Positions 1 to 35,430 of a DNA stretch of 35,430 nt are shown in pieces. Below the pieces are notes generated by a model that was given only the letters and a program-made list of their open reading frames with translations, was not told the origin of the DNA and made no database searches. The translations under genes and the position numbers were made by a program. Location of the stretch: IMG/VR virus record IMGVR_UViG_2923302340_000005, positions 1 through 35,430 of that record; one strand, 5' to 3'. Source of the DNA: a virus. Its lineage: Duplodnaviria > Heunggongvirae > Uroviricota > Caudoviricetes. Numbering within the stretch: position 1 is the first letter of the stretch; each line of letters starts with the position of its first letter.

Positions 1-1023
1 TTATGTGGATGAAATGTGGATGCCTCCTTTTAACGGATTAAGTGAAATTGCATCCTGGAGGAAATCAGGAGCGAGGTGCGCATAGGTCATAGTTTGCTGG
101 ATCGTAGCGTGCCCCATAATTCGCTGGAGCGTAAGTATATTTCCTCCATTAATCATAAAGTGAGCAGCAAAGGTATGGCGTAGAACATGTACAGCCTGTC
201 CTTTTGGTAGGTCTGGCTTAACACTGCGAAGCACCTTGCGATATTCCTCATAATTGACGTCAAACAAAAGGCCGGATTTCTTTGTTTTGATCTCACTAAC
301 AACTTCATCAGAGACAGGAATAATTCGAACTTTTCCGTTTTTAGTTTTGTTAAACGTCACGCGATTATTGATGATGTGTTCCGCGCGCAGATTTTTCGCT
401 TCTCCCCATCTCGCCCCAGTACTGAGACAAAGTAGCGTAATCCGCCGGGCATCACCGCTTACTGCATCCAGTAATTTGGCGATTTCTTCCGTGGTGAGAT
501 ACGTCATTTCGGGTGATTTTCGTTTCAAAGAGGGGAGGGCGCGGAGCGGATTTTCTCCGTGAAATTCCCCGGCATTTGCCAGGAGTGTAAACATTCCTCC
601 GAGATCCGACTCATCACGCCGAACAGTAGACTCTTTTACTCCCAAGGATAAACGGGAGCTTCGATAAGCGGCCATGAAACGAGCATTAATCTGGCTAACC
701 CTTGGATCATTCATTTCTTTGATGATTTTTTTCAACCTGGTTAGAACGCCGTTAGCATATGGCTTATTGCGTCCACCCAATTCCCACCATAACGGAAGCA
801 GATCTGAGAGATGACGTTGCTCTGTTGGCTTTTCAAGCCATTCCTTATCGTGCATGTGGCTGAGAACATAACGCTCAAAGGCCACTGCATCTGCCTTTTT
901 CTTAAAAATCCGCTGAATCCGACGTCCACTTCGGCCACGCGGTCTAACATCCACTTTATACCGTCCACCATCGAGCGCTTTAATTGCCATTGGCAAGCCC
1001 TCCGGTGAAACGAGGAAAGACAT
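1..1023 (-). CDS. int: Tyrosine integrase, P2 Int-like
   Basis: 340-aa ORF; C-terminal catalytic region with conserved R...HxxR...Y pattern (VLRHTFAAH, TMTYAHL) typical of phage tyrosine recombinases; sits next to the immunity repressor as in P2. Stop codon at 1-3, so the adjacent att site is outside the window. Confidence 0.9.
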   Translation of the reverse strand: MSFLVSPEGLPMAIKALDGGRYKVDVRPRGRSGRRIQRIFKKKADAVAFERYVLSHMHDKEWLEKPTEQRHLSDLLPLWWELGGRNKPYANGVLTRLKKIIKEMNDPRVSQINARFMAAYRSSRLSLGVKESTVRRDESDLGGMFTLLANAGEFHGENPLRALPSLKRKSPEMTYLTTEEIAKLLDAVSGDARRITLLCLSTGARWGEAKNLRAEHIINNRVTFNKTKNGKVRIIPVSDEVVSEIKTKKSGLLFDVNYEEYRKVLRSVKPDLPKGQAVHVLRHTFAAHFMINGGNILTLQRIMGHATIQQTMTYAHLAPDFLQDAISLNPLKGGIHISST

Positions 1024-1454: not shown

Positions 1455-1781
1455 ATGAATGAAGAACTATTGAGGGCATTGTTTAAGATCCCAGACCCCA
1501 TCACCGTCGATGAGTTTTCCCGCCGCACAGGTAAGACCGAATCAGCCGTAAGAAAGTTGGTAGAGCGTCGACTCATCCCTCTAACTACTGAGCGCGAGGT
1601 TTTAGGCGAGGAAGGGAGTTCGCGCCGTCTTCTCATCCTTTGGAATGAGTGGCTCGAAATGGTCTATGACGCAACGAAACAGCTTCCTCCTGAGCGTAAA
1701 GATTGGCGCAATCACTGGCTTAAGAAAGCCAAGAAGCTGGCGGAAGATTTGGGATTAGGCTTTCTTAATTTTGCTGCATGA
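1455..1781 (+). CDS. Cox/Apl-like small DNA-binding excision and regulatory protein (putative)
   Basis: First gene of the rightward early operon, divergent from C; GGGAG 8 nt upstream of ATG 1455; small basic protein. Track ORF extends to ATG 1398, which lies almost at the predicted transcription start. Confidence 0.55.
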   Translation: MNEELLRALFKIPDPITVDEFSRRTGKTESAVRKLVERRLIPLTTEREVLGEEGSSRRLLILWNEWLEMVYDATKQLPPERKDWRNHWLKKAKKLAEDLGLGFLNFAA

Positions 1782-1799
1782 GATGCAGGGAGTTTTGAT

Positions 1800-2141
1800 A
1801 TGAAACAGCAACGTAATTCACGCTTTCGTAATGGTGCTGAACGCCACGCTAACCGTTTCGCTACCAGTGCATCACGCAGCAACATCCGCTACAGCCTGAG
1901 TGATACACACGCAACGCCGGATGGCTACCCAGTAAAACAAATCGGCGAGCATGCCTGGCTGATTGAGAAAGCTGGAATCGTGGTCCACAAATGCCCACGC
2001 AATCCGTTTACCGGAAACCGCATTTTTGCATTGAGCTGCGGCGACAATCAATTCGGGCAGGATTTCACATTATACGAAGCACTTCGCACGGTTGATCGTC
2101 TGCTTCGTGGGCAAAGTTTTATTAAACAGGCTGATTTATAA
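1800..2141 (+). CDS. Hypothetical early protein
   Basis: 113-aa ORF with AGGGAG-type RBS, in the early operon; no family recognised. Confidence 0.6.
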   Translation: MKQQRNSRFRNGAERHANRFATSASRSNIRYSLSDTHATPDGYPVKQIGEHAWLIEKAGIVVHKCPRNPFTGNRIFALSCGDNQFGQDFTLYEALRTVDRLLRGQSFIKQADL

Positions 2142-2151
2142 CAGGTGCTTT

Positions 2152-2430
2152 ATGACCAAAGAGCATGCACAAGGTGTATTTATCCGTTTTATTGATTTTC
2201 GCGGTGAACTGTTATTACGCGCATCAGCCATTGACGGAGTTGTTCCATCCGAAAAAAACGCAGCTACTTACGTTTATCTGAACGGTACGCGCCTGACTGT
2301 GGAGCTTCCGTACCAGACCGTGCGAGAAATCATTAGCGAAGCTGAAAAGGCACGTCAGGTTAATGGCGATAAACCATATATCGAAATTATTTGTATGGAT
2401 TCAGAAGCTGAAATTCAGAAAGCAGATTAA
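2152..2430 (+). CDS. Hypothetical early protein
   Basis: 92-aa ORF, start ATG 2152 close behind the previous stop; track ORF begins earlier at 2092. Confidence 0.5.
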   Translation: MTKEHAQGVFIRFIDFRGELLLRASAIDGVVPSEKNAATYVYLNGTRLTVELPYQTVREIISEAEKARQVNGDKPYIEIICMDSEAEIQKAD

Positions 2431-2441
2431 AGGGCGTTGCG

Positions 2442-2684
2442 ATGGGCAAAGAATATAAAACTCTCATTAACAAAGCACTTGAACGATTTTATTTTCGCTT
2501 AAGTGCATCAGGCGCTCATGCTGAACGTGCAGCCCGTGACTCATTGACCAGGGCAATCCGGAGTTTGTATGACGTCGCTTTTTACGCTGATGATCTGGAT
2601 GCACTTAACGAACTTTCCGAGCTGATCTGTGCCGCAGAATGCGGGGAACATATTGAACCGTATAAGCTGGGGAATATCGCATGA
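2442..2684 (+). CDS. Hypothetical early protein
   Basis: 80-aa ORF with AAAGGG upstream of the ATG. Confidence 0.55.
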   Translation: MGKEYKTLINKALERFYFRLSASGAHAERAARDSLTRAIRSLYDVAFYADDLDALNELSELICAAECGEHIEPYKLGNIA

Positions 2685-2794
2685 GTATATTTATCTCATG
2701 GCTTGTTCTGATTATTTCGGTGGCCTGCGCCATTGGAATTATGCGAATTATTCATTCAGTAAAAAAGATTGAACGTTTTTTCACTGGTGAATAA
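2681..2794 (+). CDS. Small hydrophobic peptide (37 aa), putative single-pass membrane protein
   Basis: Not in the ORF track (under 60 aa). ATG 2681 overlaps the upstream stop (ATGA), GGGGA 7 nt upstream; translation MSIFISWLVLIISVACAIGIMRIIHSVKKIERFFTGE has one hydrophobic helix. Confidence 0.35.
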   Translation: MSIFISWLVLIISVACAIGIMRIIHSVKKIERFFTGE

Positions 2795-2979
2795 CGATAC
2801 AAATAAAACATCAAATTAAATAAGAAAACGTGAAAACCATCCGTATTAACGGAGGTATTCGCACACGCAAATAACGGAGATACAAAAATGCACGCAAAAG
2901 AAGAAGGTATCATCAGAGCACTGAAAGAAATTTCAAAGACAGAAAACGAAGTAGCGAAAAAGCCATAGCAAATAATCAT

Positions 2980-3297
2980 ATGGACGTCGCAACCCACACA
3001 CTGATAGTCGCAAGAGTCACGGCAGAAGCAGCCGAAATTATCGCAAAACAGGATGCTGAACTGGCGGTTCTCAGAACACAACCAGTCACCGGACTGGATT
3101 TGTCTAACACCGGACGCCTTATTTACACAATTGGCTCGGAGCTACAGCGATACACCATTATCGCCGGGTTACAGGATAAATACCTGATCACTCCTCACCC
3201 CATAAGGGAATCAGAAATTCTGACAAATCTCCGCCTGATAGAGCGCTCTCAAGTCGCATTCATTGATGACGCACAGTGCACCGTATTTAACGCATAG
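2980..3297 (+). CDS. Hypothetical early protein
   Basis: 105-aa ORF following an AT-rich spacer; weak RBS. Confidence 0.5.
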   Translation: MDVATHTLIVARVTAEAAEIIAKQDAELAVLRTQPVTGLDLSNTGRLIYTIGSELQRYTIIAGLQDKYLITPHPIRESEILTNLRLIERSQVAFIDDAQCTVFNA

Positions 3298-3320
3298 AGT
3301 TACTGGACAAAGGGGGCGCA

Positions 3321-3524
3321 ATGGCAATTAAGCATTTTCCCGTCGTTCGCTTTACCTCCAGAGGGCGCGAATACGAGGTCGACGAACGCCTGATTACCAC
3401 TATCGACAAACATCGTTCGGAAAAGGATGCACACCACATCTACCTCACTGACGGCACTTACTTCTGCGCCACTAATGTGGCGCGGGTAAACCTTATCCGA
3501 CAGGTACAGGAGCCACGCAGATGA
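3321..3524 (+). CDS. Hypothetical early protein
   Basis: 67-aa ORF with strong RBS (AAAGGGGG); stop overlaps the next start. Confidence 0.55.
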   Translation: MAIKHFPVVRFTSRGREYEVDERLITTIDKHRSEKDAHHIYLTDGTYFCATNVARVNLIRQVQEPRR

Positions 3525-3787
3525 CCATTCTGGACTACATCGCTACTCATCCGGGGTGTAGCGGCGGAGAGATCGCCGCAGCACTGAATACTCCAACCAC
3601 AGCCATTAATGCTGAGTTACGCCAACTTTGGCGCGGCGGCTTAGTCATCAGAACAAACCGCAGCACAGGTGGTCGCGCTCGCAAAACTGGAGGCCAGGCT
3701 TCTTACCACGTAAACCCGATGCCGTTCGGGTGTAGCAATCCACTTACTCACATGTTTAACCAGCTACTGAAGGAAGCCAGAACATGA
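3521..3787 (+). CDS. Putative winged-helix DNA-binding protein
   Basis: 88-aa ORF coupled to its neighbours; sequence pattern (ILDYIATHPGCSGGEIAAALN...LRQLWRGGLV) resembles a wHTH regulator. Family assignment is by eye only. Confidence 0.45.
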   Translation: MTILDYIATHPGCSGGEIAAALNTPTTAINAELRQLWRGGLVIRTNRSTGGRARKTGGQASYHVNPMPFGCSNPLTHMFNQLLKEART

Positions 3788-4083
3788 GCACCATCAACCA
3801 CCAGAAGCTACGCGAACTGGCATTTGCCCTGCAACGAATGGCAACACCTCAAAAATTACTGGCATTTCGCGCAATGCTCTCGCCGTCTGCTGCGCTGGCA
3901 TTGCTGGATGAGCTGGAGCACGCCAGAACCACGGCTCCTGCCATTCGCCTGACGCTCCATCATGAAATCGCTGATTTCTGCGCGACATTGGAGGTGCCAG
4001 GCGAACCGGAAACGCCGGAAGCAATACAGCAAGAGCTGCTGCAACGTATTGACAAGGTTTTTGATTTTTTTCTGAACCAGTAA
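3784..4083 (+). CDS. Ea22/Ead-like N-terminal domain protein
   Basis: 99 aa; shares the N-terminal signature MSxINxQxLRELA and ALLDELE with the two genes at 9325 and 9921. Confidence 0.5.
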   Translation: MSTINHQKLRELAFALQRMATPQKLLAFRAMLSPSAALALLDELEHARTTAPAIRLTLHHEIADFCATLEVPGEPETPEAIQQELLQRIDKVFDFFLNQ

Positions 4084-4190
4084 GAAACCAGAGCATGCAC
4101 ACACAAAAAAACCGCTTGCCATGCCGCAATCAGTCAGGTTACATTTCCGCTGCACCTCATAAAACGGGTGCCGGGTTTCGCAGCCTGCTG

Positions 4191-4395
4191 ACTACAAGAG
4201 CGCACAACCGCGCCAGCGGTTTTTTTGTGCGTACTGTATTGCCACGTTTTTTTCGCGTCAGAATTATGGCGGGGCGTACGGGGCCGACTTCGGTCGGGCC
4301 GGGATCTCTTGTAGCCGGTACTGCGAACCTCGTACGTCTCGCCACCCACAGTTTCGCAGCTCTGGATGGTGAGTTTTCACAACTTACTACAAGAG
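4191..4395. repeat. Three copies of CTACAAGAG, two direct and one inverted
   Basis: ACTACAAGAG at 4191-4200 and 4386-4395; reverse complement CTCTTGTAG at 4306-4314. The third copy contains the AAGAGG ribosome-binding site of the gene at 4406. Confidence 0.7.
4206..4226 (+). terminator. Rho-independent terminator candidate
   Basis: Stem AACCGC / GCGGTT with GCCA loop, followed by a T-run (4221-4226). Confidence 0.55.
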
Positions 4396-4405
4396 GCCAC
4401 ATATC

Positions 4406-4636
4406 ATGGCAAACCGCAAACAGCACCGCACTATCGCGGAGCGTCGTCACATCCAGACTGAAATCAACCGCAGACTTTCCCGCGCATTCCGCGTCGCTAA
4501 AATCATGCACATCAATATGCTGCATGAGCGTAGCTGCGAACTTTCAAACCTCTATTCATCCGCTGTTTTCAGCTATCTGGCGGATGATCTGCGCGAGCTT
4601 CAACAGCTCATCCAGCAGCAAAACAAACTCCATTAA
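4406..4636 (+). CDS. Hypothetical small basic protein
   Basis: 76-aa ORF, AAGAGG 9 nt upstream; preferred over the overlapping low-complexity 205-aa ORF 4095-4712. Confidence 0.5.
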   Translation: MANRKQHRTIAERRHIQTEINRRLSRAFRVAKIMHINMLHERSCELSNLYSSAVFSYLADDLRELQQLIQQQNKLH

Positions 4637-4708
4637 TTCCTGTTCCGGACCTTTCCTGCACCTTGCGGCGGGAGGCCTTCGCACATCTGTAACAAGAGGA
4701 TTGCCGCA

Positions 4709-5074
4709 ATGATTCTCGCCAACGACTTTCTTGAATACCTGCTCAACACAGAACGTGATCTTGCCGCTCGCGTGCGTGATCGTTATGACATGTACCTGAA
4801 ATCCCTGCCTGTACCGCAGCTCGCTGACGGAAAGATTGTTATTGATGGTCGCTACATGATTGACAGCCACGAGGGAAATTACAGGCTTTACCGCATTGAA
4901 GGTGGCACCCCGTCCGTTATTGGCATTTACCAGCGCCCATCCTCTGCAATTGTCGATGTGATTGCCGACAGCATCCGCATCACACATCGCCATGCCGACA
5001 CAGAAGACACCGTGCTGGAAATTCAGCGGCTGGCTGCCGTCTGCCGCGACACCCTGAATGGCATGACGAAGTAA
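4709..5074 (+). CDS. Hypothetical protein upstream of replication gene A
   Basis: 121-aa ORF with AAGAGG-type RBS. Confidence 0.55.
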   Translation: MILANDFLEYLLNTERDLAARVRDRYDMYLKSLPVPQLADGKIVIDGRYMIDSHEGNYRLYRIEGGTPSVIGIYQRPSSAIVDVIADSIRITHRHADTEDTVLEIQRLAAVCRDTLNGMTK

Positions 5075-5080
5075 ATCACT

Positions 5081-7909
5081 ATGACGGCAGAGTACATCAG
5101 GGACTGGCAACAACCGCGCCACGCAGTGGGACGTGAAGGAACGGGGATCCCCGTTCCTGAATCTGCGCTTTCCTCCTGGCTGGATGCCTACCGGGCAGAG
5201 AACGAGCGCCGCCAGGAAATGGCTGATGCGGCGTTCTCCGCCACGCCGCTGGGCAACCTGATTAATAAAAGCCTGGATGCACAGGAAAAACAGGACAAAA
5301 CCATCACACTGGCAGGAGACGCCAGAAAACAGGCACGCGGCGCGGTGGATGAAGCCATGGCCTCGCTGCGCCTGCTGCCGTCCTATCTGCGCGATCCGCT
5401 TATTCGCCACCTCTCCTTCCTGCGCAAAAAACAGGAAGTCGATCGCCGGAAAGGCAAAAAGAGCTGGCAGGCTGAACGCTACGCGCGCGGAACCCTGCGC
5501 AAAATATTCGAACGTCTGGACCGCACCGACCACCGCTGGCTGACACCGGGTTATCGCTCCCTTGCCGGACGCGAACGCCTGGATGATTTGCTTTACCTGC
5601 CGCAGCTCAACAAGCACCAGATACAGACGCTGGCCACCATGACGGCGGCGATGTTCAGCAGCACCTTCGAAAAACTCTGCGATGGCTTTGGCGCGACTGA
5701 TGGCGAACTGACCATGGATGTAACGCTGAAGGCGTATCAGATGCTGGCCCGCATGGCGTTACACCTGCACGCCATGCCTCCACATTATGACGCACTGACA
5801 ACAGACAAAGACCGGAGGAACGAACCGGACACGGAGCTGCTGCCGGGCGCAATCCTTCGCCTGACCTGTGCGGAATGGTGGAAACGCAAACTGTGGCTGT
5901 TACGTTGCGAGTGGAGAGAAGAACAACTCCGCGCCGCCTGTCTGGTTTCCAGAAAAACATCACCCTATCTGAGCCAGGACGCGTTAAGCGAGTTTCGCGC
6001 ACAGCGCGAGAAAACCCGCGACTTCCTGAAGAGCTTCGAACTGGAAAACGAAGACGGCTTCACGATTGATCTCGAGACAGTGTATTACGCGGGAGTAAGT
6101 AACCCGGTTCACCGTAAGGCAGAAATGATGGCCACCATGAAGGGACTGGAACTTCTGGCCGAAGCCCGTGGCGACAGAGCGGTGTTTCTGACTGTCACCT
6201 GCCCGTCAAAATACCACGCAACAACGGAGAACGGTCATCCGAACCCCAAATGGAACGGGGCCACCATGCGCGACTCCAGCGATTACCTGGTTAACACGTT
6301 TTTTGCGGCGGTCCGCAAGAAACTGAACCGCGACGGCCTGCGCTGGTATGGCATCCGCACGGTGGAGCCTCACCATGACGGCACCGTGCACTGGCATATG
6401 ATGGTCTTTGCTCATCCGGAAGAAATCGACAGCATCGTGGCCATCACCCGCGATATTGCCATTCAGGAAGACCGCCACGAGCTGGGCAATGATATTACTC
6501 CGCGCTTTAAGGTGGAGTATGTCGACGGCTCAAAAGGCACGCCAACCAGCTACATCGCCACCTACATCGGAAAGAACCTGGACAGCCGCGCCGTGGATGG
6601 CATCGACCCGAAAACGGGCAAACCACGCGTTGACCACGAAACCGGAAAATCAATGGCCGAGAGCGTGGAACGCGCCATCGGCTGGGCGCGCCTTCACCGG
6701 GTCCGCCAGTTCCAGTTCTTTGGTATCCCCTCCCGTCAGGTGTGGCGTGAACTGCGTCGCCTTGCCAGCCAGATGGCACGCAACCCCGAAGGCCCGCAAC
6801 GGCTGAAGGATGACGCAATGGATGCGGTTCTTGCTGCCGCTGATGCCGGATGTTTTGCCACCTACATAGAGAAACAGGGCGGCGTACTTGTTCCACGCAA
6901 AGACTACCTGATTCGCACCGCCTACGACCTCGCAGATGAGCTGAACGATTACGGCGAACAGAGCGTACAGATTTACGGGATCTGGTCGCCACTCATCGGG
7001 GAATCCTCCCGTGTGTGCACGCATCCGGATAACTGGAAGCTGGTAAGACGCAAACCGGAAGCGGAAGACAGCGCCCGCGAAAATGGTTTTGACCTTCAGG
7101 GCGGCCCTGCCGCCCCTTGGACTCGTGGCAATAACTGTCCCCGTGTACAGGAAACGGACAACAACGGGATAGAACAGCCGGAAGAACGGCCAGCACCGTG
7201 GCCGCAGCTCCCTGACGGCGTTGAAGTGAACGAATGGATGCGCTCACTGAAACGGCACGAACGCCGGGCGCTGATGCGTTCGCTTCGGCTTCGTGACAAA
7301 CAGGCAAAAAACAGCAGTGATGAAATGCAGAGCTGGACACAGAGCCGCAAACAGCAGCGGCCTTTGCCTGATAACCACGAATTACTCGCTAAAGAATGGC
7401 GGGAATCTGCCGAATCTCTCGGCCTGCATATCGGTGAACAGCAGATGCAGCACCTGTTACGGGGCGGCAGCCTGTACGTTGACGGCAGCATCATTGCACC
7501 GCAGGGATTTGAAATTGTACGCAAACCGGATACCCGCCCGGACAGCCGAATCACGCAGCTCTGGCAGCGCCTGAGCCGTAATCACGGCGTAAGCAGCACA
7601 GAGATCCGCCATAACCCGGTCGCCAGCTATCTGGAACAACTGGGGGCATCAGACCCCGAAGCCGCCGCACGTCTGGCATCCACACTTCAGCAGGACCAGA
7701 ACACCATGAAAACCCCCGTTACCGTGCTTTCTGACATGCTGCGCGCCATCCGTGACACAGAGCACGCACAGAGAATCAGTGAAACCACTGAACGCGCCCA
7801 CCGCAAAGCAGACCTGCTGCGGGGTAGCCTGACCAGTGGAAACAAAAAACAGACAGAAACGGGACTCACAAATCTCGTAAATGAGCAAAAAACGCGCCAT
7901 AAAACATGA
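5081..7909 (+). CDS. A: Rolling-circle replication initiator, P2 gpA-like (HUH endonuclease)
   Basis: 942 aa; HUH-type metal motif HWHMMVF and paired catalytic tyrosines SYIATYIGK, characteristic of P2 A / phiX174 gpA Rep proteins; carries a long charged C-terminal extension relative to P2 A. Confidence 0.85.
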   Translation: MTAEYIRDWQQPRHAVGREGTGIPVPESALSSWLDAYRAENERRQEMADAAFSATPLGNLINKSLDAQEKQDKTITLAGDARKQARGAVDEAMASLRLLPSYLRDPLIRHLSFLRKKQEVDRRKGKKSWQAERYARGTLRKIFERLDRTDHRWLTPGYRSLAGRERLDDLLYLPQLNKHQIQTLATMTAAMFSSTFEKLCDGFGATDGELTMDVTLKAYQMLARMALHLHAMPPHYDALTTDKDRRNEPDTELLPGAILRLTCAEWWKRKLWLLRCEWREEQLRAACLVSRKTSPYLSQDALSEFRAQREKTRDFLKSFELENEDGFTIDLETVYYAGVSNPVHRKAEMMATMKGLELLAEARGDRAVFLTVTCPSKYHATTENGHPNPKWNGATMRDSSDYLVNTFFAAVRKKLNRDGLRWYGIRTVEPHHDGTVHWHMMVFAHPEEIDSIVAITRDIAIQEDRHELGNDITPRFKVEYVDGSKGTPTSYIATYIGKNLDSRAVDGIDPKTGKPRVDHETGKSMAESVERAIGWARLHRVRQFQFFGIPSRQVWRELRRLASQMARNPEGPQRLKDDAMDAVLAAADAGCFATYIEKQGGVLVPRKDYLIRTAYDLADELNDYGEQSVQIYGIWSPLIGESSRVCTHPDNWKLVRRKPEAEDSARENGFDLQGGPAAPWTRGNNCPRVQETDNNGIEQPEERPAPWPQLPDGVEVNEWMRSLKRHERRALMRSLRLRDKQAKNSSDEMQSWTQSRKQQRPLPDNHELLAKEWRESAESLGLHIGEQQMQHLLRGGSLYVDGSIIAPQGFEIVRKPDTRPDSRITQLWQRLSRNHGVSSTEIRHNPVASYLEQLGASDPEAAARLASTLQQDQNTMKTPVTVLSDMLRAIRDTEHAQRISETTERAHRKADLLRGSLTSGNKKQTETGLTNLVNEQKTRHKT

Positions 7910-7958
7910 AGTGCGCACAAAACAGGCAAAAGCGGGATTTGAAAATCCCGTAAACGAT
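7857..7958. promoter_or_regulatory. Imperfect direct repeats straddling the A stop; candidate parC-like site or operator
   Basis: gggactcacaaatctcgtaaatga (7861-7884) and gggatttgaaaatcccgtaaacga (7934-7957) match at 18 of 24 positions; the second contains the perfect palindrome gggattt..aaatccc. Confidence 0.4.
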
Positions 7959-7985
7959 TAATTAATCAACATAAGGAAAAGCGAC

Positions 7986-8945
7986 ATGAAAATTTGTATC
8001 GACGACGGCTCCACCAACATCAAGCTGGCATGGACTGAGAACGGCGAACGCCGCAACGCCATCAGCCCGAACAGTTTCAAGTCGGAATGGTCTGCGCCGT
8101 TCGGTGGCACGCAGCCCGCGAACTACATGCTTGATGGCGTGCGCTATGGTTTTGATCCGGTCAGCGATCGCTTTGTCCAGACGACCGACACGCAATACCA
8201 GTACAGCGATGTGAATGTAATCGCCATTCACCACGCGCTGGTCAAATCAGGCATCACACCACAGGAAGTGGATGTGGTTGTCACCCTGCCACTGAGCGAA
8301 TATTTCGACACAAACGCACAGCCGGACATGGCCAACATCAACCGCAAAAAAGCGAACGTTATGCGCCCGGTGGAGTACCAGAACGGCAAAGCATTCACTA
8401 TCCGTAACGTACGGGTTATGCCTGAATCCATTCCGGCTGGCTTTAAAGCACTGGCTGACATGAGTCCGTTTGAATCCCTGCTGATTGTGGATTTAGGCGG
8501 AACCACGCTGGATGTGGCAAAGGTTCAGGGACAACTGGCAGGTATCAGCCAGGTGTTTTGCGATCCACACGTAGGCGTTTCCCTGATGGCCGATGCCGTA
8601 CTGTCGGTGATGGCTACTAACGGTATGCGTACCAGCCACCACATCGCCAATACCATTATCGAACATCGCCATGATGAAGCCTGGCTGCGCCAGCACATCC
8701 ACAATGACGCGCATTACGCCAGCCTGATGGCGGTTATTCGTGAAAAGGAAGAAACACTGAAACAACGCGTGATCCGCGCACTGGCGGGTTTTTCGGGTTA
8801 CGGGCGGGTGATGGTTGTCGGTGGCGGGGCGGAGATTGTGGCACCCGCTATCCGCGAAGCCTGCGGAGTTAATGCGACTTTCATCGCGGACGGGGTGCCA
8901 CAGTTTGCTCTGGTTAATGGGCTGTACGCAATGGACAAGGAGTAA
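7986..8945 (+). CDS. parM: ParM/StbA-like actin-type segregation ATPase
   Basis: 319 aa; strong resemblance to plasmid R1 ParM as recalled from memory along the whole length (IDDGSTNIKL, ISPNSFK, YSDVNVIAIHHAL, VMPESIPAG, LIVDLGGTTLD, SGY..VMVVGGGAE, LVNGLY). AAGGA RBS. Confidence 0.85.
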   Translation: MKICIDDGSTNIKLAWTENGERRNAISPNSFKSEWSAPFGGTQPANYMLDGVRYGFDPVSDRFVQTTDTQYQYSDVNVIAIHHALVKSGITPQEVDVVVTLPLSEYFDTNAQPDMANINRKKANVMRPVEYQNGKAFTIRNVRVMPESIPAGFKALADMSPFESLLIVDLGGTTLDVAKVQGQLAGISQVFCDPHVGVSLMADAVLSVMATNGMRTSHHIANTIIEHRHDEAWLRQHIHNDAHYASLMAVIREKEETLKQRVIRALAGFSGYGRVMVVGGGAEIVAPAIREACGVNATFIADGVPQFALVNGLYAMDKE

Positions 8946-8949
8946 ACCA

Positions 8950-9261
8950 ATGACGACACCAACCAGACGGATAAGTTTCTATCTGAAGCCCGCCGCCGTC
9001 AAGAACGAAAGCGAAGCATGCGCCTGGCTGGACAGCCTTACACCAGAAGCCCGCAAAAGCGGCCAACGCGTGGCTTTTCTGGCCGGGCTGGCACTTCTGA
9101 AAATGAATCCGGCAGAGGCTTACCGACTGGCTGCATGGGCTGATGGCGAGGCGTTATCAGTGACACAAACCAGGACAGAACGCCCCGTGCCACAGCCAGC
9201 ACCAACCGCACAGATAACCAGTCAGATGGCCGGAAATATCCGGGCGTTATTTCCCGAATAA
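8950..9261 (+). CDS. parR: ParR-like adaptor protein (putative)
   Basis: 103 aa directly downstream of the parM-like gene; AAGGAG 7 nt upstream; resembles R1 ParR (RRISFYLKP..., VAFLAGLAL, C-terminal LFPE). Track ORF starts further upstream inside parM. Confidence 0.65.
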   Translation: MTTPTRRISFYLKPAAVKNESEACAWLDSLTPEARKSGQRVAFLAGLALLKMNPAEAYRLAAWADGEALSVTQTRTERPVPQPAPTAQITSQMAGNIRALFPE

Positions 9262-22782: not shown

Positions 22783-25440
22783 ATGAGCACGAAATTTAAA
22801 ACCGTTATCACTACTGCCGGAGCCGCGAAGCTGGCAGCCGCCACCGTCCCCGGCGGGAAAAAAGTAAACCTGTCTGCAATGGCCGTGGGTGACGGTAATG
22901 GCAAATTGCCGGTGCCGGATGCCGGTCAGACGAAACTGGTGCATGAGGTCTGGCGTCACGCTCTGAATAAAGTCAGCGTGGATAACAAGAATAAAAACTA
23001 TATCGTGGCTGAACTGGTTGTACCGCCCGAAGTGGGCGGCTTCTGGATGCGTGAGCTTGGTCTGTATGACGATGCCGGAACACTGATTGCGGTATCCAAC
23101 ATGGCAGAAAGCTATAAGCCAGAACTGGCTGAAGGCTCCGGACGTGCGCAGACCTGCCGCATGGTTATTATTGTCAGCAACGTGGCGTCCGTTGAGCTGA
23201 GTATTGATGCCAGCACAGTGATGGCGACGCAGGATTACGTCGATGATAAAATCGCAGAGCATGAGCAATCCCGCCGCCATCCTGACGCCACGCTGACAGA
23301 AAAAGGTTTTACTCAGTTAAGCAGTGCAACAAACAGCACCAGTGAAAAGCTGGCGGCAACGCCAAAAGCGGTCAAGGCAGCAAATGACAACGCAAATTCA
23401 CGTCTGGCGAAAAATCAGAACGGTGCAGATATCCAGGATAAATCAGCTTTTCTGGACAATATTGGTGTTACCAGCCTGACGTTTATGAAAAACAACGGCG
23501 AAATGCCGCTTGATGCTGACTTGAATACATTTGGTCCCGTTAAGGCTTATCTTGGCATCTGGTCTAAAGCAACATCCACCAACGCAACACTGGAGAAAAA
23601 TTTCCCGGAAGATAATGCTGTCGGTGTGCTTGAGGTTTTTGCAGCTGGCAATTTTGCAGGCACACAACGTTTTATCACGAGAGACGGCAATGTATACATG
23701 CGTAAACTCGTCAATAAGTGGAATGGCACTGATGGTCCGTGGGGCGTATGGCGTCACACTCAATCAGCTACCCGCCCTTTGAGTACGACTATAGACCTGA
23801 ATACGCTTGGAGCCGCTGAGCATCTTGGTTTATGGCGTAACAGTAGCTCGGCTATAGCTTCATATGAACGCAATTATCCAGAGGAAGGCGGCTTTGCTCA
23901 GGGGACGCTTGAGATCCTCGAAGGCGGGAATTATGGAAGAACGCAACGTTATACCACTCGTCGTGGGAATATGTACGTTCGCTGCCTTGCGGCAAGCTGG
24001 GATGCATCAAATCCGCAGTGGGAACCGTGGTTAAGAGTCGGTCATCAGTCAGAGAGCCGTTATTACGAAGGTGATTTGAATGTTCTAACCGACCCCGGTA
24101 TTTACAGTGTTACAGGAAAGGCGACAAACGGTCCGATTCTGGACGCTGCTGGGGCGACATTGCTTGGGATACTGGAAGTAATCAGGCGTTTTGATGGTGT
24201 ATCTGTCTGGCAGCGTTACACAACAACAGGGAGATCAAAAACCACACAGGGGCGCACTTTTGAGCGCGTCTACGCCGGGAGCACATGGACCGAATGGCGA
24301 GAAGTGTATAACTCCTTTTCGTTGCCCCTGAATATGGGGATCGGTGGCGCAGTGGCAAAACTCACCAGCCTGGACTGGCAGACCTACGATTTTGTGCCGG
24401 GCAGTCTGATAACCGTTCAGCTTGATAACATGACCAATATTCCCGACGGTATGGACTGGGGCGTCATTGATGGCAACCTGATAAACATCGCAGTTGGTCC
24501 GAGTGATGATTCCGGTACGGGGCGCTCAATGCATGTATGGCGCAGCACTGTAAGTAAAGCGAATTACCGCTTTTTTATGGTTCGCATTTCAGGAAATCCG
24601 GGAAGCCGCACGATTACGACAAGACGTGTGCCAATTATCGACGAAGCTCAGACATGGGCGGCGAAACAGACATTCAGCGGTGGTCTTTCAGGCGAACTAT
24701 CCGGCAATGCTGCTACAGCAACAAAGCTGAAAACGGCAAGGACAATTAACGGCGTAAAATTTGACGGCTCGGCAAATATTGAAGCGTTTCCGCCAGGTGT
24801 TCCGCTGCCGTGGCCATCAGATACACCACCTGCAGGTTATGCAATCATGCAGGGGCAGACGTTTGATAAGGCAGCATATCCGAAACTGGCTATTGCCTAT
24901 CCTTCTGGTGTTATTCCAGATATGCGCGGCTGGACAATCAAGGGCAAACCCGCCAGTGGTCGGGCCGTATTGTCTCAGGAACAGGATGGCATTAAATCGC
25001 ACACCCACAGTGCCAGCGCATCCAATACGGATTTGGGTACGAAAACCACATCGTCGTTTGATTACGGTACTAAATCAACGAATAACACAGGTGCACATAC
25101 CCATAATGTATCTGGTACTGCAAATAGTGCTGGCGCACATACTCATACCGTTCCATTAAGGAGACCAAACAGTGGCGGTATGAATTTCGACTGGCTGGAT
25201 GGTTCATCAAGTGGCACGGTGGTGGGGAATGGAACTGTGCCTTCTTCTGGCGCACATACCCACTCAGTATCAGGTACCGCTACAAGTGCTGGGGCACATG
25301 CACACACTGTTGGTATTGGCGCTCATACGCACTCTGTTGCGATTGGTTCACATGGACACACCATCACCGTTAACGCTGCTGGTAACGCGGAAAACACCGT
25401 TAAAAACATCGCATTTAATTATATTGTGAGGCTTGCATAA
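22783..25440 (+). CDS. H: Tail fibre protein, P2 gpH-like with His-box C-terminal repeats
   Basis: 885 aa; conserved P2 H-type N-terminus ([18 protein letters not shown]); C-terminal 150 aa carries repeated GAHTHxVSGTAxSAGAHxHTV modules. Confidence 0.85.
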
Positions 25441-26057
25441 TGGCATTCAGAATGAGTGAACAATCACGTACCGTAAAAATTTATAACCTGCTGGCCGGAA
25501 CTAATGAGTTTATTGGTGAAGGTGACGCATATATTCCACCTCATACAGGGCTGCCAGCTAATTCTACAGATATCGCCCCACCGGAAATTCCTGCTGGCTT
25601 TGTGGCAGTTTTTAACAGTGAAAATGAATCGTGGAATATTGTTGAAGACCATCGTGGTAAAACGGTCTATGACGTGGCGTCGGGGGACGCATTGTTTATT
25701 TCTGAACTCGGACCGCTATCAGAGAATGTCACCTGGTTGTCGCCAGCAGGGGAGTATCAGAAGTGGGACGGCGTATCCTGGGTGAAGGATGAGGAAGCAG
25801 AAAAACTGTTTCGGATACGGGAAGCGGAAGAGAAAAAGGCAAGGTTGATCCAGGAAGCAACAGATAACATCGCAATTCTGCAGGATGCAGTTAATCTTGA
25901 AATAGCAACAAACGAGGAAAATTCACAACTGGATTCCTGGAGAAAATACAGAGTATTAGTGAGTAGAATTGACACCAGTACAGCTCCGGATATCGTATGG
26001 CCAGAGCTGATGAATCAGGGTTATGTTCGGGAGGACGAGCAGATAACTTCAGACTGA
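25440..26057 (+). CDS. G: Tail fibre assembly chaperone, P2 gpG-like
   Basis: 205 aa; start overlaps the H stop (TAATG); typical Tfa N-terminus ([34 protein letters not shown]). Confidence 0.8.
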
Positions 26058-26584
26058 AATTTAGTGATGAATGTTGAATCATCAGGAATATCATGCAATA
26101 CCAATGCATGAGCACCTATTGTGACATTGTTTCCTATACGCACTTTGCCACCAAGAATGGTGGCATTACAACCAATGGTCACATTATGCCCTATAACAAT
26201 ATCCATATCATTAAATTCCCCGCGAAGTCCAATAGTTACTCCGGGCTTAATTGAACAATTTTCACCGATTGTTACTTTGTGACCGATAACAACACTGTTG
26301 AGATAAGAAATATCAAAGCCTTTCCCTATATTTACAGTTAAAGGGACTGTTACATTATATTTATCAAGAATGAAACGTTCTATTTTTCCCGCAATCTTCC
26401 GACAGTATCCGCCTTTATCAAAAAGGTATTTGGCTATGCGCCACCAAAATAAATAACGAAGTCTTCTATGTTTTATTGCGCGAACAATTGCCTTTCGCCA
26501 GGAGAAAGGACGCTCGCTACCGATTACTTCATAGTGAATACAGTCTTTAAGTTCATTAATATTCATATCTCTATTATTCAGCAT
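26021..26584 (-). CDS. Hexapeptide-repeat (left-handed beta-helix) O-acetyltransferase, WcaB/CysE-like; cargo gene at the Z/fun position
   Basis: 187 aa; N-terminal helical segment then tandem hexapeptide repeats ([43 protein letters not shown]); visibly AT-rich against its neighbours; weak RBS; 3' end overlaps the G stop by 37 bp. Confidence 0.7.
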
Positions 26585-26754
26585 AAGATAATCATGTGAC
26601 CAATTATTGTAATAATTTTAATGGTATGTTTCTACTGGCTATCCAGCGTGTCTGATACCCAGTAACAAATCGTTAATACGGGGGCAATCAAATGGTGAGT
26701 GTTAAGACTGGCCACTTATTACCAGGTATGAGGGTATGAGTGGCCAGCATTAAA

Positions 26755-27249
26755 TCAGAACAGTCCTTTAACTGAACTGGCCGCGCTGTTAAGGGATGAT
26801 GTCACTTTATCTTTGAAGCCGGACAGCATATCGCTGAACGATGAGGATTGCAGGCGCTCCCGCAAATCCTCATCACAGCGTTCAAGGGTCAGTGAAAATT
26901 CTATCTTTTTCGCCTTACCGTAGCGATCAAACTCGGAGCGGGTCGTATTCGTTTCAGTCAGTACATACATGCCGTAAATCTGCCCGACACCATCAATCAG
27001 AGGCCAGGGGCGTCCTGTATACGCCTGCGTGGTCAGCAACGAAAGCGACACTTCGCCACCTGTAATTTCAGGATAAAGCACGCCGGAAAGCACGATGCGA
27101 TCATCACCTGCACCGATATACTGCCAGCTTGCTGAGCAGTTAACGCGTTCATTTTTCACATGCCGCCAGCTTTTGTTTTGCTGTAACTGCTGATGCGGCA
27201 GCGTGCGCAGCTCAAAAACAAACATGCCGTAGATCATCATCATGGCCAT
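26755..27249 (-). CDS. U: Tail protein, P2 gpU-like
   Basis: 164 aa; close match to P2 gpU (GMFVF.LRT.P.QQLQ, LSGVL.PEITGG, KIEFSL). Confidence 0.85.
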   Translation of the reverse strand: MAMMMIYGMFVFELRTLPHQQLQQNKSWRHVKNERVNCSASWQYIGAGDDRIVLSGVLYPEITGGEVSLSLLTTQAYTGRPWPLIDGVGQIYGMYVLTETNTTRSEFDRYGKAKKIEFSLTLERCDEDLRERLQSSSFSDMLSGFKDKVTSSLNSAASSVKGLF

Positions 27250-32330: not shown

Positions 32331-32487
32331 AGCTTCAGCCCCTTGTATCCGTTAAATGATTCGGCAACAATCATCACCCACCACGCGCGTAATCTCACCC
32401 CTGCGCCGTTCTCCCGCCACGGCGACAACAAAAAGCAGTAACCCCCTCCGCACGCACATGCGACCATGCCACACAAGGAGGGAGCAG

Positions 32488-33597
32488 ATGACCGACACCA
32501 CCATGCAATTGCTCAGTCAGGGCACAGACCCCGTGAAAATGCCGGATTTTGATATTCTCGCGGAGGGTAAAACGCTGTCAGGCGTGGCAGAGCGCCTGAT
32601 GAGCCTGTCACTGACCGACAACCGGGGATTTGAGGCGGACCAGCTCACCATCACGCTGGATGATGCGGATGGTCAGTTGCAGCTACCGCCACGGGGCGCG
32701 CGCCTGACGGTTCTCATTGGCTGGAAAGGCGAACCGCTGACAGAAAAAGGCACTTACATTGTTGATGAAATCGCTCACGAAGGACCGCCGGACAGGCTGA
32801 CTGTTTCAGCCAGAAGCGCAGATTTTCGGGATGAATTTAACGTTAAACGTGAGGTGTCCTGGCATGATGTGACCGTTGAGCGTGTGGTATCCGCCATCGC
32901 TCATCGGTACGGTCTGAAACCGCAAATCAGCGAAATGCTGATGGATATCGAAATCGACCACGCCGACCAGACCGAAGAAAGCGACATGTCCTTTCTTACG
33001 CGCATGGCGGAAATGCTGGGCGCAATCACCACGGTAAAAAGCGGTAATCTGTTATTCATTATGCCAGGCAGTGGCGTGAACGCACAGGGCCAGCCGTTGC
33101 CATCGTTCGCCATCACGCGCAGCAGTGGCGATCGCCATCAGTTCCGCATTGCTGACCGCGAAGCGTATACGGGGGTACGCGCTTACTGGCTTGATCTTAA
33201 TTACGGGAAAAAGAAAAAAGTCAGCGTGAAACGCCGCAAACCGCCAAAAACCAAAAAGGAGAAAAGCAGCAGCCGTGAAGGTGATTATATGGAAGGCGCG
33301 GAAGGCAATGTGTTTGTGTTACGCAAGACTTATCAGAACGAACAGGCAGCAAGACGCGCAGCGGCGGCAAAGTGGCAGCAGCTACAACGCGGAGCCGCAT
33401 CATTCTCCATCACGCTGGCACGTGGTCGTGCAGAACTCTACCCCGAAATGCATGGCACGGTAACAGGATTTAAAAGCGAGATTGATAATCAGGACTGGAT
33501 TATTGCAAAAGCCGAGCACATCATTGATAACAGCGGCTTTACCACGCAGCTTGAGCTTGAGGCAAAAATCCCGGAATGGATAGCAGAAACAGACTGA
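32488..33597 (+). CDS. D: Tail / late control protein, P2 gpD-like
   Basis: Start ATG 32488 behind AAGGAGGGAG (track ORF starts at 32356); matches P2 gpD (LSLTDNRGFEADQL.I.LDD.DGQ..LP.RGA, GWKG). Confidence 0.8.
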   Translation: MTDTTMQLLSQGTDPVKMPDFDILAEGKTLSGVAERLMSLSLTDNRGFEADQLTITLDDADGQLQLPPRGARLTVLIGWKGEPLTEKGTYIVDEIAHEGPPDRLTVSARSADFRDEFNVKREVSWHDVTVERVVSAIAHRYGLKPQISEMLMDIEIDHADQTEESDMSFLTRMAEMLGAITTVKSGNLLFIMPGSGVNAQGQPLPSFAITRSSGDRHQFRIADREAYTGVRAYWLDLNYGKKKKVSVKRRKPPKTKKEKSSSREGDYMEGAEGNVFVLRKTYQNEQAARRAAAAKWQQLQRGAASFSITLARGRAELYPEMHGTVTGFKSEIDNQDWIIAKAEHIIDNSGFTTQLELEAKIPEWIAETD

Positions 33598-33639: not shown

Positions 33640-33900
33640 ATGTTCCGTTGTCCGCTTTGTGGCGCATCTGCCCGTATCCGCACCAGTCGTCCGGAAAATG
33701 ATTCAAACACCGTGCGGCAAAAGTATTACCAGTGTAACAACCTGGAATGCGGCGTATGCTTCTCAACACTGGAAGCCTTCCATAAATTCACATCAAAACA
33801 CGCCTCCGGCGTTCACTCTTCAGAAGGTATCCCGTGGCATGAGCTGCCAGCTTCACACAGGGGAAACAATCAGATGAGTTTGCCTTTACCTCAGAATTAA
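33640..33900 (+). CDS. ogr: Ogr/Delta-family zinc-finger late transcription activator
   Basis: 86 aa; MF.CPLC...AR.RTSR......Y.QC.N..C matches the Ogr CxxC...CxxC zinc finger; last gene of the phage backbone; AAGGGAGG RBS. Confidence 0.8.
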   Translation: MFRCPLCGASARIRTSRPENDSNTVRQKYYQCNNLECGVCFSTLEAFHKFTSKHASGVHSSEGIPWHELPASHRGNNQMSLPLPQN

Positions 33901-33988: not shown

Positions 33989-34225
33989 ATGTGGAAAGGC
34001 CCCGGAAAACATTTCTGTTTAACCGAGGCCCTAACACTTCTTACCTTCGCAAGTAGAAGGTTAGCGCCTCTCCTCTCAGGAGACAAGCGTTATGACGCAA
34101 ATTCCGTTAAAAACCCTGTTACTTTGCATAACTGCGGTAGCGATAATCTGGATCCTCCACACATCACCGTGCGAGTTACGATTCAGGTTTGCTGGCACGG
34201 AAATTGCGGCATTCTTACTATGTAA
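33989..34225 (+). CDS. Mok-like overlapping reading frame (putative)
   Basis: 78-aa ORF in a different frame that spans the hok-like gene, as mok does in hok/sok loci; no independent support. Confidence 0.3.
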   Translation: MWKGPGKHFCLTEALTLLTFASRRLAPLLSGDKRYDANSVKNPVTLHNCGSDNLDPPHITVRVTIQVCWHGNCGILTM

Positions 34226-34232
34226 TAAGTAA
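34092..34232 (+). CDS. hok: Hok/Gef-family type I toxin (46 aa)
   Basis: Not in the ORF track. AGGAG 9 nt upstream of ATG 34092; translation MTQIPLKTLLLCITAVAIIWILHTSPCELRFRFAGTEIAAFLLCNK has the Hok signature: hydrophobic helix with CxT, then CE(L/V)R.R....E(I/V)AAF..C. Confidence 0.75.
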   Translation: MTQIPLKTLLLCITAVAIIWILHTSPCELRFRFAGTEIAAFLLCNK

Positions 34233-34481: not shown

Positions 34482-34679
34482 ATGACGCAAAATGTACGAT
34501 GCAAAAATTGCAACAAACTACTTGCCCGCGCCTCATTTCACTACATTGAAATAAAATGTCCGCGCTGCAAAACACTTAACCAGATAACGAGAGCCATCGA
34601 GCACCCCACACACATGAGGAGTTATGACCGTGGGGATCGCAATCCAGCACCAACCAGCACATACACCGGAACACACTAA
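34482..34679 (+). CDS. com: Com-like zinc-finger protein (Mu Com family)
   Basis: 65 aa from ATG 34482 (track starts at GTG 34473); RCKNCNKLL...HYIEIKCPRCK is nearly identical to the Mu Com zinc finger as I recall it; 3' end overlaps the methyltransferase start by 56 nt. Confidence 0.75.
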   Translation: MTQNVRCKNCNKLLARASFHYIEIKCPRCKTLNQITRAIEHPTHMRSYDRGDRNPAPTSTYTGTH

Positions 34680-35430
34680 GGTTTATCAGACTGACAATGC
34701 CACGCTCTGTCGTGGGAATGCGCTGGAAATATTGCCGCTGATTGAGCCAGAAAGCATTGATGCCTTAATCACTGACCCGCCTTACAGTTCGGGCGCGACA
34801 CACAAGGCCGGACGCACCAACCAGGGCAGCCATGCAAAATATCTGAACGGCGAGAACCTTCACCGCTTTGATGGGTTCGCGGGTGAAAACATGGACGCCC
34901 GTTCGTGGGCTTACTGGACACAATTATGGATGGCACAGGCACACCGCGCAGTCAGGCCGGGCGGTTATGCCCTGGTATTTACTGACTGGCGACAACTACC
35001 AGCTTTAACCGATGCGTTTCAGGCCAGTGGCTTTACATGGCGCGGCATCATTGCGTGGAACAAGGGGAGGGGGTCACGAACACCACATACCGGGTATTTC
35101 CGGCATCAGTGCGAATACATCGTCTGGGGCAGCAAAGGCCATTTAGATAAATCGCCTTCGGGACCGTTCGACGGCTGCATGACGTTCCCAGTTATCCCGT
35201 CAAAGAAAATGCACCCGACCGGAAAACCAGAAGAACTAATGGCGGAACTGGTCAGGACTGTGAATAGTGGCGGAACAGTCCTTGATCCTTTTATGGGGTC
35301 AGGGACAACGGGTGTGGCTGCACTGAAAGCAGGGCGAAAATTTATTGGTATAGAAACCAGTGATCATTATTTTGAGGTAGCAGCGCAGCGGCTTCGGGGG
35401 ACTATTACCACAACCATTTCGGCTACATAA
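34624..35430 (+). CDS. DNA methyltransferase, beta-class amino-methyltransferase (N6-adenine or N4-cytosine)
   Basis: 268 aa, complete (TAA at 35428-35430); motif IV DPPY (ITDPPYSS) precedes motif I (FMGSGTTG), the beta-class order; GAGGA RBS. Confidence 0.8.
   Translation: MTVGIAIQHQPAHTPEHTKVYQTDNATLCRGNALEILPLIEPESIDALITDPPYSSGATHKAGRTNQGSHAKYLNGENLHRFDGFAGENMDARSWAYWTQLWMAQAHRAVRPGGYALVFTDWRQLPALTDAFQASGFTWRGIIAWNKGRGSRTPHTGYFRHQCEYIVWGSKGHLDKSPSGPFDGCMTFPVIPSKKMHPTGKPEELMAELVRTVNSGGTVLDPFMGSGTTGVAALKAGRKFIGIETSDHYFEVAAQRLRGTITTTISAT

Follow-up and report, generated by a model that had tools for sequence, protein, structure and literature searches.

What is an AT-rich acetyltransferase-like gene doing between the tail-fibre assembly gene and the tail block of a P2-related prophage? 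The question arises from the window analyzed here, i.e. the whole 35,430-nucleotide stretch of a caudoviricete virus record (IMG/VR IMGVR_UViG_2923302340_000005), for which a first-pass annotation had proposed a cargo gene acting on the surface polysaccharide of the lysogen or on a small molecule. Patterns detected are consistent with a putative left-handed beta-helix acyltransferase from a short, serine-acetyltransferase-like branch, retained by purifying selection in spite of an exchanged catalytic residue and carried at the end of a mobile tail-fibre cassette. With respect to function, we give an even chance to the reading that it is a lysogen-expressed moron acylating an envelope-glycan precursor sugar and so changing the surface seen by phages. 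The features that define the gene are as follows.

26021 to 26566, minus strand: acetyltransferase-like coding sequence, 181 amino acids, taking the second ATG as start.
26303 to 26305, minus strand: TAT codon of Tyr88 (numbering of the 181-residue protein), aligned with the catalytic His158 of CysE and with the histidine of WcaB.
26567 to 26754, minus strand: non-coding region upstream of the acetyltransferase gene, up to the gpU stop codon, with a guanine-plus-cytosine (GC) content of 0.378.
26606 to 26634, minus strand: predicted sigma-70-like promoter, TAGAAA, 17 nucleotides, TACAAT, about 40 nucleotides upstream of the ATG.

The longest minus-strand open reading frame listed at this locus covers 26021 to 26584 (187 amino acids) and begins at an in-frame upstream ATG at 26584. 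The second ATG (MNINELK...) is the start in RefSeq copies and in all homologues and is invariant, while the first is lost in two divergent alleles, so that the true coding sequence is most likely 26021 to 26566, with 181 amino acids. Of the span originally proposed, 26021 to 26754, only this part is gene and the remainder from 26567 is non-coding upstream DNA. The AT-richness that had drawn attention to the gene was confirmed: its GC content is 0.375 and its GC content at third codon positions (GC3) is 0.297, compared with 0.529 for the whole window and a GC3 of 0.57–0.68 for the capsid, tail and replication genes of the backbone, a foreign composition. It is a genuine gene because it matches Pfam Hexapep (PF00132) above the cutoff (47.5 bits against 27, E=1.1e-12) and PHROG 2154, a family of unannotated function, over its full length (E=1.1e-78, residues 5–186 to positions 2–184 of a 185-position profile).

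The protein consists of a basic four-helix N-terminal subdomain (residues 1–70, isoelectric point 10) followed by a left-handed parallel beta-helix (residues 71–170), with no transmembrane segment predicted. Structure comparison, for which an AlphaFold monomer model was made from 101 sequences (an earlier run with 25 sequences had reached a predicted local distance difference test score of 72), bears out this fold; the nearest solved structures are all CysE, and the BFVD viral structure library returned poor matches only, with template modelling scores below 0.4. Profile and structure comparison thus agree with the prediction of a left-handed beta-helix acyltransferase from the CysE/WcaB structural branch. 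Among NCBIfam models the ranking was EpsC, then CysE, WcaB and NeuD, with LacA, Maa, Vat and CatB far below. No curated equivalog was reached: EpsC scored 81.5 bits against a cutoff of 150, TIGR01172 (cysE) 71.6 against 210.65 (E=7.5e-20), PRK11132 44.9 against 397, and the WcaB models TIGR04016 and NF007564 60.1 against 194.65 and 62.1 against 196, respectively. LacA at 33.1 bits against 347 and Maa at 30.8 against 314 likewise fall short of the cutoffs of the LacA/Maa/NodL/NeuO branch. The homologue search recovered a compact clade of phage-borne enterobacterial proteins (E at or below 1e-35) and then many proteins of about 185 amino acids with 30–35% identity. All four of the cellular homologues sampled (30–34% identity) lie in polysaccharide-synthesis loci, where their neighbours are glycosyltransferases, Wzx/Wzy- or EpsG-type genes, NeuB and UDP-glucose dehydrogenase. 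In length, in architecture and at most of the conserved columns the protein resembles a short, uncurated EpsC/WcaB-like group of about 160–190 amino acids, with tyrosine in place of the histidine in its motif IGKGF...H, and the phage clade has FSWRK and FWWR motifs of its own and a one-residue insertion (ILGGK). Judged by these comparisons, the protein is probably a serine-acetyltransferase-like member of this short (about 185 amino acids) branch with relatives in polysaccharide loci.

The name “serine acetyltransferase”, under which RefSeq and phage records hold the gene, would imply an auxiliary metabolic gene that raises the supply of O-acetylserine and cysteine, and both the nearest solved structures and the TIGR01172 E value accord with it. 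However, the scores lie far below the TIGR01172 and PRK11132 cutoffs, and the features that define CysE are lacking one after the other. At 273 amino acids CysE is about 90 longer than the 181-residue phage protein, which is without the first 100 or so amino acids of the N-domain; Pfam finds no SATase_N match (the CysE N-terminal domain), and only the last four helices align. The CysE residues Asp143, Asp157/His158 and Arg192/His193 align with Thr, Ser/Tyr and Met/Asp. The C-terminal tail that docks CysK and ends in isoleucine is missing, the phage protein ending in ...ICSSSRT soon after the beta-helix, and the cellular relatives are in polysaccharide loci rather than cys operons. We therefore rejected the identity as CysE on scores, N-domain, catalytic and substrate residues, C-terminal tail and genomic loci together, and a true serine O-acetyltransferase seems extremely improbable. 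On this sequence evidence the database label is wrong for this gene, and of the two substrates initially entertained, sugar fits better, as every CysE-defining feature tested for the serine alternative fails.

The most unusual property of the protein is Tyr88. In alignments made by HMMER against CysE structures and by MAFFT with E. coli CysE and WcaB, it occupies the position of the general-base histidine, which stands in the context LDHATG in CysE and TIHHGY in WcaB. Across 101 homologues this column holds histidine in 89, tyrosine in 8, asparagine in 3 and serine in 1. All eight window-clade members of that alignment have tyrosine, as does the allele of Hafnia phage yong2, while the phage-borne relatives in phiNP, JL22 and P0015–P0022 retain histidine. 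The codon, TAT, is a single transition from CAT. As a separate matter, a compensating catalytic histidine within the tyrosine clade was sought and rejected, His96 and His153 each being missing from some members. Despite Tyr88, the acetyltransferase-like protein is clearly maintained by purifying selection, with pairwise ratios of nonsynonymous to synonymous substitution (dN/dS) of 0.08–0.13 in the window-type comparisons (at least 14 synonymous differences each) and of 0.16 at most overall. The window protein also matches 33 of the 44 columns that are conserved in at least 75% of the histidine-type homologues, including nearly the whole beta-helix core.

One explanation of this pattern is altered chemistry or a pseudoenzyme, the loss of the histidine having ended canonical O-acetyl transfer. 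Such a protein might acylate a better nucleophile, for instance an amino sugar, as the base-less N-acetyltransferases QdtC and WlbB do, or might act without catalysis by binding and sequestering a lipid-linked intermediate or a host enzyme of glycan assembly. The motifs IGKGF, GEN and GNNVxIGA are nevertheless intact, as is the remaining beta-helix core, which would be expected of a working coenzyme A (CoA)-dependent enzyme, and the histidine-type relatives (phiNP, JL22, P0015–P0022) occupy the same genomic niche, suggesting a common role. We consider altered chemistry or a pseudoenzyme unlikely. The tyrosine clade is also a cheap and well-defined test case for left-handed beta-helix catalysis.

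Upstream of the gene the pattern is one of a conserved promoter-like element. In an upstream alignment of six contexts, homology among the most divergent alleles starts at the sigma-70-like −35 box, so that the conserved unit would be promoter plus open reading frame. The predicted −10 box reads TATAAT in four of the six alleles and TACAAT in the window. The gene does not stand alone but closes a larger cassette, whose parts and right-hand border are as follows.

23297 to 25440, plus strand: distal two-thirds of the tail fibre, left part of the cassette (blastn boundaries).
25440 to 26057, plus strand: tail-fibre assembly protein Tfa (analogue of P2 gpG), 205 amino acids, part of the mobile cassette (Pfam Caudo_TAP, E=3.5e-39).
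26021 to 26057, no strand: convergent 3′ overlap of the Tfa and acetyltransferase genes, 37 base pairs.
26702 to 26753, no strand: inverted repeat with 18-nucleotide arms (83% complementary) and a 16-nucleotide spacer, directly after the gpU stop (repeat search).
26755 to 27249, minus strand: gpU tail protein, the backbone gene that borders the cassette on its right (Pfam Phage_P2_GpU, E=4.9e-38).

The flanks anticipated for the gene were recovered, with Tfa (the G protein) on one side, its stop overlapped by the opposite-strand gene over the 37 base pairs expected, and gpU and the tape-measure gene on the other. Megablast places the window flanks in the P88 group (Xuanwuvirus, Peduoviridae). 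In the window the plus strand carries H, G and D, the last at 32356–33597, and the minus strand carries FI-FII-E-T-U. Because in this P88-type order G faces U, the slot is not the G/FI junction of P2 that holds Z/fun; the right neighbour is gpU on the opposite strand, the tail block is inverted relative to P2, and the Z/fun position named by the first-pass annotation is only a loose analogy. In P88, 503458, 500465-2 and Citrobacter phage Shae_phiSM the same slot contains a DNA invertase together with alternative versions of the fibre end and of Tfa, an arrangement that makes up a host-range switch of Gin/Cin type. None of these four closest sequenced relatives sampled carries the acetyltransferase gene, so the gene is cargo. 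Presence in all relatives with backbone-like composition, which would have spoken against cargo, is the opposite of what was found. In the chromosome of E. coli E8 (2069527–2071076) it is interrupted by the insertion sequence IS1, a rare exception seen in one genome, which indicates that it is dispensable in at least that lysogen.

The cassette measures about 3.3 kb and comprises the distal tail fibre, Tfa and the acetyltransferase gene with its promoter-like upstream region. By blastn, the stretch from 23297/23467 to 26654/26845 of the window is shared at 93–96% identity with four elements: two P1-like elements (a 96.6-kb plasmid and a chromosomal one), a 47.5-kb RepA phage-plasmid with P2-type baseplate genes, and phage vB_EcoM-613R2. 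In the P1-like copies the cassette takes the place of the cin-invertible segment and adjoins lydA/lydB/darA, and Tfa is 98.5% identical to the copy in the P1-like plasmid. The C-terminal needle of the fibre is of the T4 gp37/lambda Stf type, its last 179 amino acids being 63% identical to T4 gp37. Homology with the P1-like copies stops at 26654 and homology with P88 restarts at 26750 (blastn), from where the gpU side is 97% identical to P88. This breakpoint falls within the inverted repeat after gpU and marks the cassette boundary. The repeat may be a hairpin at the transcript end of the tail operon, or a recombination boundary; there is no T-run after it, so it is not a canonical terminator.

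Divergent alleles (36–89% identity) keep the same convergent layout of Tfa and acetyltransferase in lambdoid phages, another myovirus, and phages of Hafnia and Citrobacter. In Hafnia phage yong2 (53%) fibre and Tfa face the acetyltransferase gene, in Citrobacter phage phiNP (40%) the layout is likewise convergent and the acetyltransferase gene adjoins a hicAB toxin-antitoxin pair, and P1-like JL22 and Ro157c2 (36%) have the same arrangement. In JL22 (locus 1773–9140) the acetyltransferase gene lies inside the cin-invertible segment between two opposed Tfa genes and would flip with it. A P2-like prophage remnant of O157:H7 E32511 (locus 4260–7111) has the JL22-type gene in the same gpU/Tfa slot, the fibre gene being replaced by an IS3-family element. 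An ESSI2-type allele (45%) is positioned elsewhere, at a prophage end beside the integrase and attachment site. Taken together, the cassette is seen to recur in at least seven phage backbones with the gene as its end, which upholds the cargo interpretation in one respect and amends it in another, the cargo being not a stand-alone gene but the terminal part of a fibre-Tfa-acetyltransferase cassette. Among 5426 complete E. coli genomes, the window-type allele is present in 184 and the fibre-tip segment 25080–25330 in 173, compared with 3928 for generic fibre and Tfa sequence, and the distance from acetyltransferase to fibre tip was about 650 bp in all nine records among the matches listed for both. 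The JL22-type allele is present in 530 of the same genomes, including O157:H7, O111 and O103 lineages, and its fibre tip in 213, a gap that is partly due to loss of the fibre from O157 remnants to the IS3-family element. Linkage of the gene to the fibre module is strong; allele-for-allele matching is suggestive and not proven.

A separate observation concerns virulent Streptococcus thermophilus phages of the 987 group (Streptococcus phage 9874, locus 5010–5489), in which a 31%-identical homologue is encoded between the tail/receptor-binding genes, which it directly follows, and the holin, all in one orientation.

These contexts raise two further explanations. Firstly, the gene could serve the lytic cycle, modifying the receptor on dying cells and cell debris to keep progeny with the linked fibre from being trapped, or modifying something that the fibre needs for its function. 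However far the alleles and fibres diverge, the gene strictly keeps its place next to Tfa; in the window it directly follows the FI-U tail operon in the same orientation, and in the virulent S. thermophilus phages a homologue closes the tail module without a change of strand. By contrast, the copies in P1-like, lambdoid, yong2 and phiNP contexts are not downstream of a late operon yet retain the promoter-like element; the gene and the fibre operon converge, and its expression would thus be opposed by late transcription of the fibre; and, to our knowledge, enzymes of the left-handed beta-helix acetyltransferase fold do not modify proteins. A lytic role thus appears very unlikely. Secondly, the protein could be an intracellular defence enzyme, or an acetyltransferase acting on a small molecule (antibiotic, xenobiotic, nucleotide-sugar or phage metabolite), that protects after DNA entry. 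Positions downstream of tail-fibre genes are a classic prophage cargo and defence hotspot, hicAB lies beside the phiNP allele and an integrase and attachment site beside the ESSI2-type allele, and in the virulent S. thermophilus phages lysogenic conversion cannot apply. Set against this, no PADLOC-DB 2.0 family matched at E up to 1, the xenobiotic acetyltransferase models Vat and CatB gave 24–28 bits against cutoffs of 300–475, and the conserved tie is to Tfa and fibre, not to defence genes, with no conserved partner gene. This explanation is, in our estimation, quite unlikely.

Returning to the reading that the gene is a surface-modifying moron, we envisage that it would be expressed in the lysogen from its own sigma-70-type promoter, independently of the phage late operons, as a soluble and presumably trimeric protein with a short helical subdomain and a left-handed beta-helix. 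It would acylate a glycan-precursor sugar on the cytoplasmic side of the inner membrane, with acyl-CoA (probably acetyl-CoA) as the donor, the candidate acceptors being lipid-linked O-unit, enterobacterial common antigen, colanic acid and lipopolysaccharide (LPS) core. A cytoplasmic location is plausible given the basic N-terminal subdomain and the soluble character of the protein, and K-12 product names put WcaB-type acetylation on undecaprenyl diphosphate-linked intermediates. The altered surface, once exported, would amount to lysogenic conversion, lowering adsorption of phages that use that structure, plausibly including those with the phage's own linked fibre. Since the gene is recurrently tied to Tfa and fibre, the pattern suggests an acceptor linked to the receptor of the attached fibre. 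Lysogenic expression, trimeric state, donor, acceptor, cellular location and effect on phage adsorption are steps that we infer, as is surface conversion itself.

Several observations weigh against this reading. The change from histidine to tyrosine at the general-base position makes canonical O-acetyl transfer doubtful, and the minus strand downstream of the gene showed nothing resembling a terminator. The known receptors of fibre tips of the T4 gp37/lambda Stf type are OmpC and LPS core, not O-antigen or capsule, which points to LPS core or OmpC and weakens O-antigen seroconversion; we know of no soluble enzyme that acetylates E. coli LPS core. The allele is shared by strains of differing serotypes, among them O121, O6 and O166, which argues against an O-antigen-specific acceptor. 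A one-to-one correspondence of acetyltransferase and fibre-tip alleles holds for the window type (184 versus 173 genomes) and not for the JL22 type (530 versus 213), and because of this mismatch the co-variation is suggestive only. Lastly, co-occurrence within the cassette could reflect recent spread of one 3.3-kb block, and the region downstream of fibre genes is a general cargo hotspot, where adjacency need not mean functional coupling.

A bolder extension would be that the cassette of fibre, Tfa and acetyltransferase is self-matched, pairing receptor binding with receptor masking, and that in the window's clade the masking enzyme exchanged its histidine for tyrosine with strong purifying selection acting on it. 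We regard this as doubtful. Such a cassette would move as a unit between unrelated backbones, replacing invertase-driven host-range switches, and the tyrosine enzyme would represent either a form of catalysis not yet described for the serine-acetyltransferase fold or a block of a surface-glycan pathway through binding alone. If the receptor of the linked fibre is what is modified, host range and self-exclusion would travel together in one cassette, which would explain loss of the invertible fibre switch in some P88-like and P1-like phages, and the surface change could affect host ranges in phage therapy and possibly serology. More immediately, both alleles, in 184 and 530 of the 5426 genomes, are labelled “serine acetyltransferase”, which the evidence presented here contradicts. 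The gene family was already in databases, and receptor-remodelling soluble acetyltransferases of this fold are already known from phages. New are the finding that the label is wrong, the cassette with its promoter-like element across at least seven backbones, its replacement of the invertible switch in P88-like and P1-like phages, and the selected histidine-to-tyrosine clade.

A few other features of the window deserve mention. An Rfam scan of the acetyltransferase region gave only a chance mir-221 match and a sub-threshold match to IS009 within tfa (25783–25981, plus strand, 80.8 bits against a gathering score of 117), which most likely reflects coding homology of tfa to the cryptic-prophage tfa remnant that defined this small RNA (“sRNA”) family. 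Above their gathering scores were, on the plus strand, isrK at 4152–4226 (66.7 bits) and C4 antisense RNA at 4262–4349 (81.1 bits), located at or inside an Ash-like open reading frame (4095–4712) and resembling a c4/ant immunity module of P1/P7 style. The phage is an integrated prophage with an integrase at the window start (1–1023, minus strand), and carries a ParM plasmid-segregation actin (7986–8945, plus strand; StbA_N, E=3.8e-82, and the ParM C-terminal domain) adjoining gpA (5081–7909); a near-identical fibre cassette is on the 47-kb RepA phage-plasmid. Downstream of an Ogr-type zinc-finger gene (33640–33900, plus strand) there is a Hok/Gef-like open reading frame of 46 amino acids (MTQIPLKTLLLCITAVAIIWILHTSPCELRF..., 34092–34232, plus strand), the equivalent position of which is annotated Hok/Gef in strain PEC41. 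An N6/N4 DNA methyltransferase (34624–35430, plus strand; PF01555, E=2.7e-33; PHROG 67) continues past the window end, and the otherwise similar prophage of PEC41 has a hypothetical gene and tRNA genes beyond the methyltransferase-side end.

Among known systems, a close likeness is to WcaB, the colanic-acid fucose O-acetyltransferase of E. coli, with 38% identity to the K-12 protein over 98 amino acids. WcaB/EpsC-type proteins share the size (162–187 amino acids) and the short helical subdomain joined to a left-handed beta-helix, and WcaB and the phage protein have the motifs IG(K/R)(G/R)F and GNNVxxGA in common. They differ in that WcaB retains the histidine that is tyrosine in the phage protein, and in that K-12 wcaB lies between wcaA and wcaC, whereas the phage gene lies between Tfa and gpU, outside any glycan cluster. 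NeuO, the polysialic-acid O-acetyltransferase of the K1 prophage CUS-3, would be the functional analogue if the protein modifies the surface; it is also a phage-borne left-handed beta-helix enzyme and is encoded near the CUS-3 tail-spike gene. However, NeuO belongs to the LacA/Maa/NodL branch, whose models gave 31–33 bits against cutoffs of 314–347, and has heptanucleotide phase-variation repeats, while the phage protein has neither the repeats nor the catalytic histidine, the tandem-repeat search having returned only a two-copy 8-mer in the hairpin after gpU. Looser analogues are Oac of Sf6 and GtrC of P22/BTP1, described in PMC4413052 and PMC3630932 as prophage cargo bordering the tail or attachment-site region that alters surface glycans and blocks superinfection. 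They are integral-membrane acyltransferase-3 proteins working on the periplasmic side, in contrast to the phage protein, which is without a transmembrane segment or such a Pfam match.

Putative prophage acetyltransferases in general are reportedly mentioned in a Klebsiella prophage study. Closest by family are the PHROG 2154 genes of JL22 and phiNP, named “sacF” or “sat”, with 36–40% identity and the same adjacency to Tfa; these alleles retain the histidine where the window clade has tyrosine. They were also the only mentions that our literature search found, with no functional study of the gene: the JL22 gene is recorded as a serine acetyltransferase and its presence left unexplained (PMC9603915), and that of phiNP is labelled a “fitness” gene (PMC6456863). 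The slot itself resembles the Z/fun, tin and old loci of P2 and the Gin/Cin/Pin segments, being a variable position just downstream of the Tfa gene in a P2-related myovirus. Relatives with Gin/Cin/Pin-type segments have an invertible switch there, while the window phage and the P1-like variants have instead a fixed fibre together with the acetyltransferase gene.

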